IMG/VR virus record: IMGVR_UViG_3300037014_000313
Location: 1 to 60,464 of that record
DNA: 60,464 nt
Reading direction: 5' to 3' (one strand)
DNA from: a virus
Taxonomy: Duplodnaviria; Caudoviricetes
Shown here: positions 874 to 4,107 of the stretch, in pieces
Position numbering within the stretch: the first letter of the stretch is position 1
Layout of the letters: each line of letters begins with the position of its first letter
Program-made: the position numbers and the translations under genes
The notes under the pieces: model-generated
Databases searched by the model: none
Told to the model about the DNA's origin: nothing
The model's input: the letters and a program-made list of their open reading frames with translations, nothing else

Positions 874-1028
874 AAAGCACGAAGCGTAGAAAAGCGCAAG
901 AGTGTTGCATCTGCATTAGCAAGCGAGGGTTGCTTGGGCTATGTAAAAGTGGCGTGGGATACCCCCACCACAAGAGATGCTGCATGGCACCGTCAGAGTG
1001 GCGCGTGCTGAGTCGAGGTGCCAAGTGA
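870..1028 (+). CDS. Small Cys-rich hypothetical protein (not in the ORF track)
   Basis: GTGA overlaps at both ends; VKSTKRRKAQECCICISKRG...HHKRCC. Confidence 0.5.
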   Translation: MKSTKRRKAQECCICISKRGLLGLCKSGVGYPHHKRCCMAPSEWRVLSRGAK

Positions 1029-1210
1029 GCCGGAAGAAACGGTCGTGCGCGAATTGCGGACACCAACGTGCCGCGCACCAGTACGGCCAGTGCGTGTACA
1101 ATCACGGGAGATGCTTCTGCCCGTTCTACAAAGAGCGTCCATCGAGGGCGAAGCTAACCCCGAGGGAGTTTCTATTGCGGTATGCAGACCAAATACGGAG
1201 GGAAACGTGA
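1025..1210 (+). CDS. Small zinc-finger-like protein (CANCGH..H..C..C.C)
   Basis: GTGA-coupled start; paralog of the next ORF. Confidence 0.6.
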   Translation: MSRKKRSCANCGHQRAAHQYGQCVYNHGRCFCPFYKERPSRAKLTPREFLLRYADQIRRET

Positions 1211-1383
1211 AACGGTCGTGCGCGAATTGTGGGCGTAGTCCGGCTAATCATGGACGGGACTATGGCGCGAATTGTCAGACCTACCGCGAGCGTCCGTCGA
1301 GGGCTGGATGCAGGGAGTGGGGCTGCCCTCTGTGCAAAGCCGTGGTCAATGGCGTGCTGGGTCCGAAACGTAAGAAGATTTGA
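1207..1383 (+). CDS. Small zinc-finger-like protein (CANCG...H...C)
   Basis: GTGA-coupled start; shares KRSCANCG and Y.ERPSRA with the previous ORF. Confidence 0.6.
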   Translation: MKRSCANCGRSPANHGRDYGANCQTYRERPSRAGCREWGCPLCKAVVNGVLGPKRKKI

Positions 1384-1392
1384 TCTGCGAAA

Positions 1393-2985
1393 ATGAACTA
1401 CTACAACGACAACGATAAATCCTGTTGCGCTTGGTTGCGCGAACTCATCAAGGACGGGTTGATCCCAGAGGGAGATGTAGATGGCAGAAGCATCACGGAA
1501 GTACGAGCAGAAGACCTTCGATCCTACGATCAATGTCACTTCTTCGCCGGGATCGGCGGCTGGAGTCTCGCCCTCAAACTCGCGGGATGGGAAGACAAAG
1601 CTTGGACCGGCTCCTGCCCCTGCCAGCCCTTCAGCACCGCAGGCAAGGGCAAAGGCGAAGCCGATGAGCGTCACCTATGGCCCGCTTTTTTCAAGCTCAT
1701 CAAAGAGTGCCACCCTGGAACTGTCTTTGGTGAACAAGTTGCAGCAGCTATTGCGTATGGGTGGCTCGATGGAGTATTCGCAGACCTGGAAGGAGAAGAT
1801 TACTCCTGCGGGGCGGCAGTATTGGGCGCACACAGCGTCGGGGCACCGCACATCAGGCAGAGACTTTACTGGGTGGCACACTCCGAGAGTGGACGGCGGC
1901 AGGGAGAAATCGGAGACATTCCTGAAAAGGAACCCCAATCGTGGAGCGTACTGCACCAGCGGATTGGGTGCAGAAGCGAAGTTGGCAGGGTGGCCGACGC
2001 CGAACGCAAACAAGAACACGAAGAACAGCAAAGACCCAAAGTGCATGAAGGAGGGGGGAGTACAGACATCGCTGGCGGATGCGACGCATCTGGCCGGCTG
2101 GCCGACCGCTTCAAGTCGGGACTGGAAGGACACGCCGGGGATGGACACGAAGGGGACGAACCCAGACGGGACAGAGAGGATACGGCTGGACCAGCTTCCG
2201 CGAGTCGCGCACCAGGTTGGAACGGCCCCTGCGTCTGGTGGCCCTGCCGGGACGGGGTCAGGCGACGTATACCGGCTGAATCCGTTTTTCAGTTTACATT
2301 TGATGGGATTTCCGGTATCATGGGGGCTGGCTGGATTGAGGTCGTTTCTAAAATCAAAGAGGTGATTTATGGGAAGAAAGCCAACCCCGACACCGATAAA
2401 GCGCTGCGGGAGGTGTGGTGTTCTGTTGCAAAGACATCGCTACAATGGAACGCTGGAAGACAATTCGAGATTCAAGAGCCGGAAATATTGCTCCTTGCGC
2501 TGTGCCAACTCTCGCGGGATACGGAGCCAGAGCGCGTCGGCCCAAAGAAGGATTTCTCATTCCTGCGTGAAGCCACAATGCGAATCCTGTGGTTCAACGC
2601 ATCGCCTTCACGTTCATCATATCAACGGGAATTGGAGAGACCAGGGACCGGAGAACCTAAAAACCCTCTGCATTCGTTGTCATCTTGGATTGCACAACAG
2701 GATGGAAAGGAAGTGCGCTCATTGCTCCAACAAGTCCAGGAAGCACGGGATGTGTCAGAGGCATTTCCAGAGGTGGAAAAGACATGGCGATCCGTTTTTG
2801 GTGAGGAGGCGAAAGTCAGGGACGCCGCACGGTACAAGGCTGGTAAGGGTGCAATCGTAGCCACGAACTGTTTCCCGCTGGCCGTCAATGTTCCCGGCAG
2901 AGTGGGCCTCCTCCGGGGCGCGGGCAATGCAATCGTCCCGCCGCTCGCGGCGGAATTCGTGAAAGCGTTTATGGAGTCATCGTAA
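1393..2985 (+). CDS. C5-cytosine DNA methyltransferase, alpha chain (motifs I-VIII and X)
   Basis: FFAGIGG (I), SCPCQPFSTAG (IV), EQV (VI), PHIRQRLYWVA (VIII), LRGAGNAIVPPLA (X); no motif IX in this frame. Confidence 0.88.
   Translation: MNYYNDNDKSCCAWLRELIKDGLIPEGDVDGRSITEVRAEDLRSYDQCHFFAGIGGWSLALKLAGWEDKAWTGSCPCQPFSTAGKGKGEADERHLWPAFFKLIKECHPGTVFGEQVAAAIAYGWLDGVFADLEGEDYSCGAAVLGAHSVGAPHIRQRLYWVAHSESGRRQGEIGDIPEKEPQSWSVLHQRIGCRSEVGRVADAERKQEHEEQQRPKVHEGGGSTDIAGGCDASGRLADRFKSGLEGHAGDGHEGDEPRRDREDTAGPASASRAPGWNGPCVWWPCRDGVRRRIPAESVFQFTFDGISGIMGAGWIEVVSKIKEVIYGKKANPDTDKALREVWCSVAKTSLQWNAGRQFEIQEPEILLLALCQLSRDTEPERVGPKKDFSFLREATMRILWFNASPSRSSYQRELERPGTGEPKNPLHSLSSWIAQQDGKEVRSLLQQVQEARDVSEAFPEVEKTWRSVFGEEAKVRDAARYKAGKGAIVATNCFPLAVNVPGRVGLLRGAGNAIVPPLAAEFVKAFMESS
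1664..2365 (+). CDS. Putative C5-MTase beta chain (target-recognition region and motif IX) in the +1 frame; start uncertain (1481, 1664 or 1769)
   Basis: Three GW[PH]T repeats and LNPFFSLHLMGFPVSW, a motif IX-like sequence; layout resembles M.EcoHK31I alpha/beta. Confidence 0.7.
   Translation: MSVTYGPLFSSSSKSATLELSLVNKLQQLLRMGGSMEYSQTWKEKITPAGRQYWAHTASGHRTSGRDFTGWHTPRVDGGREKSETFLKRNPNRGAYCTSGLGAEAKLAGWPTPNANKNTKNSKDPKCMKEGGVQTSLADATHLAGWPTASSRDWKDTPGMDTKGTNPDGTERIRLDQLPRVAHQVGTAPASGGPAGTGSGDVYRLNPFFSLHLMGFPVSWGLAGLRSFLKSKR
2369..2860 (+). CDS. HNH endonuclease nested in the +1 frame of the MTase gene
   Basis: GAGGTG RBS before the ATG; CESC...LHVHHINGNWRDQGPENLKTLCIRCH; extra CxxC fingers. 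Confidence 0.8.
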   Translation: MGRKPTPTPIKRCGRCGVLLQRHRYNGTLEDNSRFKSRKYCSLRCANSRGIRSQSASAQRRISHSCVKPQCESCGSTHRLHVHHINGNWRDQGPENLKTLCIRCHLGLHNRMERKCAHCSNKSRKHGMCQRHFQRWKRHGDPFLVRRRKSGTPHGTRLVRVQS

Positions 2986-3002
2986 GATAAAACGAGGACA
3001 CC

Positions 3003-3581
3003 GTGAGAGTCCTGGTGGCGTGCGAGTTCAGCGGGATCGTTCGGGAGGCGTTTCGCATAATTGGGCATGAAGCATACTCATGCGACTTGCTGGCTACGGA
3101 GATTCCGGGGCATCACTACCAAGAGGATGTTTTTAGGGTTATTGACAAAGGTTGGGACTTGATGATTGCCCACCCGCCCTGTACGCACTTGGCCGTAAGC
3201 GGGGCGAGGTACTTCAGCCAGAAGCTGGAGAAACAGCTTGAAGCGTTGGAGTTTGTGCGAATGCTTCTTGATGCGCCGATCCCGCGTATCTGCCTTGAGA
3301 ATCCCGTGTCCATCATCAGCACCAGGATTCGCAAGCCGGATCAAATCATCCAGCCGTGGATGTTCGGTCATCCAGAGTCAAAGGCAACGTGCTTGTGGCT
3401 CAAGAATCTACCGAAGCTGAAGCCGACGAACGTCATTGAGAAGCCTTCATGCGGGCATTGGGATAACCAGACGCCGAGCGGCCAGAACAAGCTTGGGCCG
3501 TCACCGGACAGGGCGAAGAACAGGTCCAAGACGTACCGGGGGATTGCGGACGCAATGGCTAAGCAGTATGGCTGTCTCTGA
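3003..3581 (+). CDS. Compact phage cytosine DNA methyltransferase-like protein
   Basis: VLVACEFSG, DLMIAHPPCT (catalytic PC), LENP, K.TCLWL, RSKTY.GIA.AMA.Q. Confidence 0.75.
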   Translation: MRVLVACEFSGIVREAFRIIGHEAYSCDLLATEIPGHHYQEDVFRVIDKGWDLMIAHPPCTHLAVSGARYFSQKLEKQLEALEFVRMLLDAPIPRICLENPVSIISTRIRKPDQIIQPWMFGHPESKATCLWLKNLPKLKPTNVIEKPSCGHWDNQTPSGQNKLGPSPDRAKNRSKTYRGIADAMAKQYGCL

Positions 3582-3608
3582 AAAATAAGTCGAAGAAAGG
3601 GGTCCGAA

Positions 3609-3908
3609 ATGGGATTCATTGACGACGACAGCATGGTTCGGGTGGATTTCTTCAAGTGTGGAGGCGATGGAAGACCGCACAAGTGGTACTGCACGGAGGG
3701 GGTTAAATGGACGGGCGAGTACGAAAAAGAGAAGCAGCTTATTTACGATGCCTTTAAGAAATCACTTCGGGATCACCTGAAGGGGCGGCTCACCGGGATG
3801 GTTGCAGTCTGCCTTGAGCCGTGCCATGAATACATGTTCCCGTTGATAGCTTATGTGGATGACTTGGAAAATAACTCGAAGACAACGCCTCCCGCATCGG
3901 CGCGGTGA
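3609..3908 (+). CDS. Hypothetical protein
   Basis: ORF with a purine-rich RBS in the + arm. Confidence 0.65.
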   Translation: MGFIDDDSMVRVDFFKCGGDGRPHKWYCTEGVKWTGEYEKEKQLIYDAFKKSLRDHLKGRLTGMVAVCLEPCHEYMFPLIAYVDDLENNSKTTPPASAR

Positions 3909-3987
3909 CTCGGAGGCTGTCACGGAACACGCGACCGATGCGGAGGCGATAAACTGAATTGGGGTTCTGACTCGTAAGTGAGGATTT

Positions 3988-4107
3988 ATGCTTGACGCAT
4001 GGTGGAAAGCGCATGAATTGGAAACGTACTTTGGGTTGGTATGTTTCGGCGTATGCCTTGTGCTGATGGTCGTGTGGATCGCCGTGGGGTGGAATCGCAA
4101 GACTTGA
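3988..4107 (+). CDS. 39-aa single-pass membrane micro-protein (not in the ORF track)
   Basis: GAGG RBS; MLDAWWKAHELETYFGLVCFGVCLVLMVVWIAVGWNRKT. Confidence 0.5.
   Translation: MLDAWWKAHELETYFGLVCFGVCLVLMVVWIAVGWNRKT

Follow-up and report, generated by a model that had tools for sequence, protein, structure and literature searches.

An HNH endonuclease gene, probably of homing type, nested out of frame in a phage C5 methylase gene that already encodes two chains

Introduction

How can a complete endonuclease gene lie inside another gene and leave the reading frame of that gene open from end to end? The question is raised by a cytosine C5 methylase gene of a virus assigned to the Caudoviricetes, IMG/VR record IMGVR_UViG_3300037014_000313, which is 60,464 bases long (hereafter the window; estimated completeness 64%). 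At this locus a large methylase chain (α), a second chain in another frame (β) and an HNH endonuclease open reading frame (ORF) are superimposed, and the nuclease ORF begins just past the stop codon of β.

Nucleases that settle in phage genes have precedents. The mobE gene in nrdA of Aeromonas phage Aeh1 is said to encode a free-standing homing endonuclease that splits a phage gene without an intron. A natural α/β C5 methylase, M.EcoHK31I, was reportedly described by Lee and colleagues in 1995. According to two papers on this enzyme, its β chain is encoded wholly in another frame of α, both chains are needed and must associate, and α holds motifs I–VIII and X while β holds motif IX (PMC2836561, PMC3404938). 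The ShiLan domain, a 202-residue insertion in the gp65 methylase of mycobacteriophage ShiLan, is described by Arsenault, Gosselin and Gogarten (2025, Genes 16:178; PMC11855218) as hiding a 195-residue HNH endonuclease, in what is the first account of this kind of element. An out-of-frame hidden HNH gene and a two-frame methylase are thus each already known (PMC11855218; PMC2836561).

Here, we present the anatomy, constraint and distribution of the nested gene in the window. With a probability of roughly 0.7, we regard it as an HNH gene, most likely a selfish one of homing type, nested in the +1 frame of a C5 methylase gene that already coded for two chains.

Results

Layout of the locus

The features of the locus are the following (D1 and D2 denote the two putative copies of a segment discussed below; aa, amino acids; nt, nucleotides).

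1393–2985, + strand: α ORF, frame 1, 530 aa, large-domain chain of a C5 cytosine methylase, read through the HNH gene
1393–1917, + strand: catalytic part of α, aa 1–175, motifs I–VIII, with a confident model and invariant columns
1933–2217, + strand: low-confidence linker of α, aa 181–275, overprinted on the recognition domain of β
1481–2365, + strand: β ORF, frame 2 (+1 relative to α), 294 aa, with a WPTP-repeat recognition region and an LNPxxSxxLMGFPxxW motif (motif IX analogue)
2273–2323, + strand: putative copy D1 of the dual-coded segment, β motif IX intact and α reading degenerate
2281–2868, + strand: block in α missing from insert-free alleles, α aa 297–492, 588 nt
2359–2364, + strand: Shine-Dalgarno-like GAGGTG for the HNH gene, overlapping the β stop at 2363–2365
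2369–2860, + strand: HNH endonuclease ORF, 163 aa, with an N-terminal Cys4 module, an HNH core and a C-terminal Cys/His module
2869–2985, + strand: putative copy D2, with α pre-X and motif X (CFPLAVNVPGRVGLLRGAGNAIVPP...) and the α stop, β-frame reading degenerate

The β chain ends with TGA at 2363–2365, and the ATG of the HNH ORF follows at 2369, 3 nt further on and in the frame of β. From 2369 to 2860 the α frame contains zero stops, and it then reads on into ...CFPLAVNVPGRVGLLRGAGNAIVPP... (motif X). The ORF listing and the sequence bear out what a sequence-only reading of this DNA had described, namely a 163-residue HNH ORF 3 nt past the β stop, in the +1 frame and behind GAGGTG, and an α frame that remains open through this ORF before it reaches motif X; the alternative offered in that reading, three proteins in 1.6 kb, is right as a description. 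At the other end of β, AGAGGGAG can be read 6 nt upstream of its ATG. Behind AGAGGGAG, at 1475–1483 in the β frame, ATG TAG ATG forms a start-stop mini-ORF immediately before the β start.

Constraint on the open α frame

The α frame over the nuclease gene was compared with shuffled sequences, in which synonymous codons were permuted within the HNH ORF such that the protein and the codon usage were kept (20000 shuffles). Shuffled versions of the window carried a mean of 8.85 α-frame stops and 0/20000 were stop-free; the actual sequence has 0. The third frame over the same ORF contains 5 stops. Across the window and the loci listed next, 3.3–11.1 α-frame stops were expected per locus under shuffling and none was observed in any of them. 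The probabilities of zero stops at these other loci were as follows.

L005: 0.0003
L007: 0.0031
L008: 0.0111
L014 (Staphylococcus phage, 35% GC): 0/20000, with 11 stops expected
L098: 0.0009
L099: 0.0014

In L013, the single α-frame stop within the HNH range is the terminator of α itself, and the HNH ORF runs 10 nt beyond it. The α frame is open through the nuclease gene in all seven homologous nested copies as well as in the Staphylococcus phage case. Eight distant free-standing HNH relatives provided a natural control, and in 8/8 the corresponding frame is open for merely 0–26 codons around the core. The sequence-only reading had held that α-frame stops in HNH-bearing homologues would make the open frame a matter of chance; such stops are absent from 7/7 copies. 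Its proposal of dual coding, with the nuclease nested in an open α frame, is upheld by the contrast between the nested copies (7/7) and the free-standing relatives (0/8).

The two frames differ in what is conserved. Compared across the initial 115 codons of the HNH ORF, all ten pairs among the five carriers of the methylase family defined below are 42–62% identical in the HNH frame versus 24–38% in the α frame. A contig about 95% identical to the window (X4) covers 2316–2773 with 21 differences, 19 of which are listed; none creates a stop. Read in the β/HNH frame, 13 of these 19 substitutions are synonymous and 6 are not, and read in the α frame 5 are synonymous and 14 are not. The same contig has TAA in place of TGA as the β stop. 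Judged from these comparisons, the α frame is kept open through the HNH gene by selection and not by chance, and the nuclease frame is the one constrained at the protein level, α being conserved there only as an open frame.

The two-frame host methylase

The α chain matches Pfam PF00145 over aa 72–176 (E 1.1e-16) and PHROG 363 (E 3.5e-68), and its AlphaFold2 (AF2) model resembles M.HhaI and M.HaeIII (Foldseek, E 4e-7). The invariant columns in an alignment of 60 sequences include FxGxGGW, PCQxFS, EQV and RxR. The block-mean predicted local distance difference test score (pLDDT) is 73–97 for aa 1–170, below 50 for aa 181–275, 87 in a hairpin at about aa 281–290, 31–67 through the insert and 79–95 at the C-terminus (aa 511–530). 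The linker region is weakly conserved and varies in length among aligned relatives. The β chain matches PHROG 1008, 'DNA methyltransferase' (E 7.9e-22), and gives tblastn matches in 43 phage records. Alignments and comparison with a single-frame homologue, gp76 of mycobacteriophage Rita, place motifs I–VIII and X in α and motif IX in β. Rita gp76 contains motifs I–VIII, LLPTP repeats, motif IX and motif X in this order in one frame, and the window methylase repeats the same order as frame 1, frame 2 and frame 1. In another mycobacteriophage, Jarcob (L096, 2300–3470), the methylase has a listed identity of 100.0% to Rita gp76 in two joined tblastn pieces and is annotated as two coding sequences (CDSs), gp69 and gp70, with a 17-nt overlap; it looks frameshifted or split.

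A tblastn search with β matched 89 loci, 85 of which, the window included, have a β ORF that is uncut by a contig end. The α frame is stop-free across the whole β ORF in 69/85 of these untruncated relatives (GC content 0.52–0.70). An open third frame occurs in 0/85, the mean there being 13.1 stops. The α stops in the 16 exceptions are located mostly at the ends of the β range: in 12 of them α ends 4–247 nt before β, and in the other 4 α begins past the start of the β open stretch. The earliest possible β start lies 13–133 nt past the α start in 61/62 loci and 277 nt past it in the remaining one. The two chains are annotated as an overlapping CDS pair in Xanthomonas phage PhiXhv-5 and Kagunavirus fKuEco01, both insert-free, and Rhodobacter phage RcPescado, also insert-free, has a β-like match in the +1 frame relative to its annotated CDS. 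On the evidence of these alignments, the joint openness of both frames is a family trait of the host methylase.

The overlap extends to conserved motifs. In insert-free alleles, motif IX of β (LNPxHSRWLMGYPxxW) and the pre-X segment of α (PVEPGxFPLAxGxPxRVG) share the same bases; one frameshifted chain therefore cannot hold both. A predicted complex of α with β aa 80–294 scored an ipSAE of 0.76 (best control, 0.06), a mark reached in a benchmark by 58/80 solved complexes and 2/110 mismatched pairs, although resemblance to single-chain C5 methylases of solved structure may account for this score. The prediction runs had at least 61% of contacts in common, with a partner pLDDT of at least 56. 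In the predicted complex, β 262–293 packs on α 490–517 and on the N-terminal helix of α, and α aa 312–486 contribute two interface residues, 405 and 410. The two chains would act as a heterodimer, which the prediction supports but does not show.

The insert lies at a segment read in both frames

Alignment with homologous phage methylase genes, the check suggested by the sequence-only reading, identified insert-free alleles and bounded the extra block at 2281–2868: aa 297–492 of α correspond to a gap in the insert-free loci L001, L002 and L003. The same reading had located the insertion in a tolerant linker of the split methylase, and this was imprecise, as the insert is not in the poorly conserved linker of α but at the segment read in both frames. 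The α stop lies 509–641 nt past the β stop in the five carriers; for almost every other member of the family the distance is −28 to +83 nt.

Each boundary of the insert carries a version of this segment. At D1, a β motif IX profile built from insert-free β rows matches in 5/5 carriers with 17.9–43.4 bits (18.6 bits in the window), and the α reading is degenerate, VFQFTFDGISG versus the consensus GxFPLAxGxPx. At D2, α keeps FPLAxGxPxRVGxLRGxGNAIVP and the β-frame reading is degenerate (SRWPSMFPAEW). An α C-terminal profile built from 23 insert-free sequences likewise finds two matches with overlapping profile coordinates in 5/5 carriers; in the window the first spans nt 2236–2316 (profile positions 1–25, 8.7 bits) and the second falls at D2 (positions 7–52, 52 bits). 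Past the HNH gene, the β motif IX profile has a second significant match in a single carrier, L008 (15.5 bits), and none in the remaining 4. Taken together, the profile matches make it likely that the dual-coded segment has been duplicated around the HNH gene.

The α-frame reading of the insert was also searched for relatives. The peptide encoded by 2278–2868 had no tblastn match in phages, and a word-indexed protein search with α aa 296–492 returned the window's own protein only, among 2200 candidates. Because this search matched the window's own protein alone, the α-frame reading of the insert has no detectable protein family.

The nuclease and its start site

The nested ORF matches PHROG 1271, 'HNH endonuclease' (E 5.5e-10), and its Cys pairs and H-N-H residues are invariant in 4/4 aligned relatives. 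In all seven homologous nested copies the β stop lies 0–6 nt before the HNH ATG and in the same frame, with purine-rich runs resembling a Shine-Dalgarno (SD) sequence. Because the ATG is this close to the β stop, reinitiation by ribosomes that terminate on β is possible, and the recurrent spacing suggests that the HNH start is translationally coupled to the β stop. A sigma-70-like site is present at 2293–2321 (TTTACA, 17 nt, TATCAT; 10/12), about 48 nt 5' of the HNH start and inside the inserted block. The promoter scan returned this one sigma-70-like site versus 1.1 expected, which is not above chance.

Signs of splicing

A cmscan search against Rfam over 1000–4000 at E ≤ 1 gave 0 matches and hence no intron RNA core. 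The residues at the insert junctions of four alleles, N|C, G|G, N|L and A|F, are not conserved, and the HNH ORF is +1 relative to α, whereas the nuclease of an intein is in frame with its host. The sequence-only reading had seen no intron or intein signature at this locus, and the Rfam search and the junction residues agree with it. Two metatranscriptome runs hold the gene, with contigs covering 1353–2038 (X1) and 2070–2238 and 2467–2631 (X2); DNA carry-over into these RNA libraries is possible.

Recurrence and evidence for mobility

Five of the 85 untruncated family members carry the HNH gene, namely the window, L005, L007, L008 and L013, the last being Komagataeibacter phage phiKX1. With so few carriers, the methylase works without the HNH gene. 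The nested arrangement is found in the window, three other IMG/VR viruses, phiKX1, a Lacunisphaera metagenome-assembled genome (MAG) and a Bacillota MAG; Komagataeibacter phage phiKX2 was matched as well. The sources of the nested gene are a sediment virus, Komagataeibacter phages and MAGs of Verrucomicrobiota and Bacillota, and the hosts appear to be non-actinobacterial. In phiKX1 (LC644975, 1363–3019) only fragments are annotated, as hypothetical proteins at 1889–2497 and 2803–3009; its 548-residue α ORF and 172-residue HNH ORF are unannotated, and the HNH ORF enters the β-frame shadow of motif X. In L098 and L099, the contigs from the Lacunisphaera and Bacillota MAGs, the open 'α' frame upstream of the HNH gene reads as the β-frame shadow and then as α-type sequence.

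Full-length similarity links the nuclease to a second host. The HNH ORF of the window is 34% identical over its full length (161 columns, E 2e-24) to an ORF nested in a methylase gene of Staphylococcus phage CUB-EPI_14. The strongest sign of mobility in these data is that one HNH family occurs in two methylase genes that are unrelated to each other. In the maximum-likelihood tree of α the five carriers are scattered, with 5 changes needed versus a mean of 4.9 after shuffling; well-supported (starred) branches force at least 2 changes, and the nearest relative of every carrier is insert-free. A metagenome scan with the HNH profile found just 2 distant free-standing relatives.

Comparison with known systems

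One close parallel to the window insert is the ShiLan domain. As described in PMC11855218, the ShiLan host frame is likewise without a stop, and its HNH ORF, in a different frame, is flanked by zinc-finger modules. The paper reports neither an intron nor an intein signature; over 11 residues, the first part of the insert is similar to the host sequence that follows the insertion site; and the host-frame reading folds at low confidence. The two elements are nonetheless distinct. Inspection of the ShiLan locus showed gp65 to be a single-frame gene with a DPPY amino-methylase motif, whereas the host in the window is a two-frame α/β C5 methylase. The nuclease is in the +2 frame in ShiLan and the +1 frame in the window, and the two nucleases have only a 20-residue HNH core in common (11/20 identities, E 2e-4). 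For the ShiLan nuclease, in front of which they saw no ribosome-binding site, the authors proposed leaderless initiation (PMC11855218), whereas the window family has a conserved SD-like sequence and a conserved β stop 0–6 nt upstream. They also report a disjunct distribution of their element (PMC11855218). On sequence grounds the window insert is the same kind of element as the ShiLan domain but not the same element. Directly upstream of gp65, ShiLan (L097, 1933–2289) carries a free-standing annotated HNH endonuclease, gp64.

The other parallels concern the host or the mode of insertion. Nuclease genes of the mobE type similarly occupy a conserved position within a conserved phage gene, and no self-splicing is involved; there, however, the host is reportedly cut into two ORFs whose products reassemble, whereas the host frame in the window stays continuous by dual coding. 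M.EcoHK31I is likened to the window methylase by its architecture. Its recognition domain is placed on α in the passages cited, which mention no nested nuclease (PMC2836561, PMC3404938), whereas the window has its WPTP-repeat region in β and α forms a low-confidence linker there. In CUB-EPI_14, gp45 (ON325435), a DNA-cytosine methyltransferase, hosts a nuclease of the same HNH family, in the same +1 frame, with the methylase frame open throughout and the HNH gene unannotated. This host differs in being a classical single-chain methylase, in which the insert precedes motif IX instead of lying between IX and X, and the HNH gene has its own AGGAGG 8 nt upstream of its start, with no upstream ORF stop to couple to. 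The combination found in the window, with three proteins nested in an α/β methylase, an HNH start coupled to an SD and the β stop, and a split dual-coded segment, was not found described in the literature searched, although the survey of other phages and prokaryotes in PMC11855218 may list relatives of these loci.

Neighbouring genes

Several variable or related features surround the cassette. In one contig from the X2 RNA library, position 1382 is followed by 9 other letters and then by position 3000, so that 1617 nt, the whole α/β/HNH cassette, are skipped; there seems to be a related genome in that sample that lacks the methylase module. Immediately upstream, 977–1383 contains two small neighbouring ORFs whose Cys-rich products are alike (KRSCANCG...ERPSRA). 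The region has a 24-nt repeat at 1036–1059 and 1209–1232 with 96% likeness, and X2 contigs skip 218–219 nt there (1059 to 1279; 1063 to 1282), as if some variants hold one copy. Downstream, 17 nt past the α stop, a small gene for another DNA methyltransferase occupies 3003–3581; it matches PHROG 757 (E 2.6e-69) but has no hit in Pfam or NCBIfam.

Discussion

The explanation that we favour for the open frame combines the two layers of coding described above. The α chain, in frame 1, would supply motifs I–VIII and, at its far C-terminus, motif X, and the β chain, in frame 2, would supply the recognition region and motif IX. The insert would have entered at the short dual-coded segment, which is now doubled, so that the upstream copy would retain the ending of β and the downstream copy the ending of α. 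To reach motif X on the far side of the insert, ribosomes reading α must pass through the full 588 nt of inserted sequence; selection would therefore purge α-frame stops, while the amino acids of α drift. The α reading of the insert would then be a drifting, low-confidence surface loop, and the nuclease frame would be under protein-level constraint. The HNH protein would be made from its own SD and ATG, and ribosomes finishing β may reinitiate there. We infer that the element homes and is not removed by splicing. The full sequence of events is put forward more tentatively, as somewhat short of an even bet: a mobile nuclease would have invaded the two-frame stretch, spared both genes by means of a second copy of the segment, come to start on the terminating ribosomes of β, and left α with a passenger loop of about 196 residues constrained only against stops.

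Several observations weigh against this explanation. The nucleotide likeness of D1 and D2 is not above that of codon-position shuffles in 4/5 loci (p 0.14–0.85), and the profile matches on which the duplication rests are short. No RNA-library contig bridges 2281 or 2868, and no joint is listed there. The nuclease assignment has its own weak points: the Pfam HNH match (E 8e-4, 19.9 bits) is under the curated cut-off of 21.4 bits, the best match of the HNH profile to the PDB is a weak one, to the HNH domain of ZRANB3 (E 0.023), and the AF2 model of the HNH protein is poor (pLDDT 60). As to mobility, an approximately unbiased (AU) test does not reject a single clade of the five carriers (p 0.101), and the α tree is weakly resolved, with 8/61 branches starred. 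Finally, the upstream methylase frames of L098 and L099 look shifted and these genes may be broken, although the frame is still open; the shift suggests either that a prophage gene is decaying or that the assembly is faulty.

Other explanations of the locus were weighed against the same data. The nuclease might be a working partner of the methylase, in a restriction-modification-like or anti-competitor module in which methylation guards the phage DNA and the HNH protein cuts unmodified DNA of the host or of rival phages. Such a module would fit the presence of one HNH family inside two unrelated C5 methylase genes, the conserved catalytic residues of the nuclease, and a start at the β stop in 7/7 copies, which would co-express nuclease and methylase. 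We nevertheless consider it unlikely, given that the HNH gene is found in merely 5/85 family members, that the nearest tree relative of each carrier is insert-free, that a conserved segment of the host gene is interrupted and doubled by the insert, as is usual for homing elements, and that a disjunct distribution is reported for the ShiLan element (PMC11855218). Composition alone could also be invoked for the open frame, since a GC content of 52–58% in the proteobacterial-type copies lowers stop frequency; this is practically negligible as an explanation in view of shuffle probabilities from 0/20000 to 0.011 per locus at seven stop-free loci, the 35% GC Staphylococcus case with 11 stops expected and 0 seen, the closed frame in 8/8 free-standing relatives, and the 42–62% identity among loci, which are not near-identical copies.

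Removal of the insert, either as an intron that escaped recognition or as an intein of non-canonical type, would make the open α frame incidental; this seems very improbable. It could draw on the intein-like end of the window insert (...ATN followed by C), on the frequent carriage of HNH genes in group I introns, and on the lack of an RNA contig spanning the insert boundaries. It is opposed by the empty Rfam search over 1000–4000 at E ≤ 1, by junction residues that vary between alleles, and by the out-of-frame position of the nuclease, which cannot be an intein domain; moreover, an intron that is spliced out has no need of an open host frame, and still 7/7 copies have one, against 3.3–8.9 stops expected. 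The ShiLan authors found no intron or intein signature either (PMC11855218). The chance is slighter still that the methylase is one chain made by two ribosomal frameshifts, from frame 1 to 2 after motif VIII and back before motif X, which the insertion has split or inactivated. Rita gp76 does have all motifs in one frame, and the 1/2/1 frame order mirrors it. Frameshifting, however, needs neither an α frame open across β nor a β frame open from near the α start, and both are family-wide (69/85 versus 0/85 for the third frame; earliest β start 13–133 nt past the α start in 61/62 loci); motif IX and pre-X occupy the same bases, which one chain cannot both contain; and M.EcoHK31I works as two separate chains (PMC2836561). 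A selfish nuclease gene nested by dual coding in a two-chain methylase gene remains the explanation that we prefer.

If the full sequence of events put forward above is right, the locus would give a concrete answer to the question left open in the ShiLan paper of how hidden HNH genes are translated, and would suggest that the boundary repeat seen in ShiLan is a general signature of this mode of insertion. The coupled start is a testable route to nuclease expression, and cultured carriers exist in Komagataeibacter phage phiKX1 and Staphylococcus phage CUB-EPI_14. Methylases in databases that have such inserts contain the shadow of a nuclease gene, and annotators miss the nuclease itself, as in phiKX1 and CUB-EPI_14. 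As independent and apparently non-actinobacterial cases, these loci would indicate that homing-type nucleases can persist within genes by dual coding instead of splicing.

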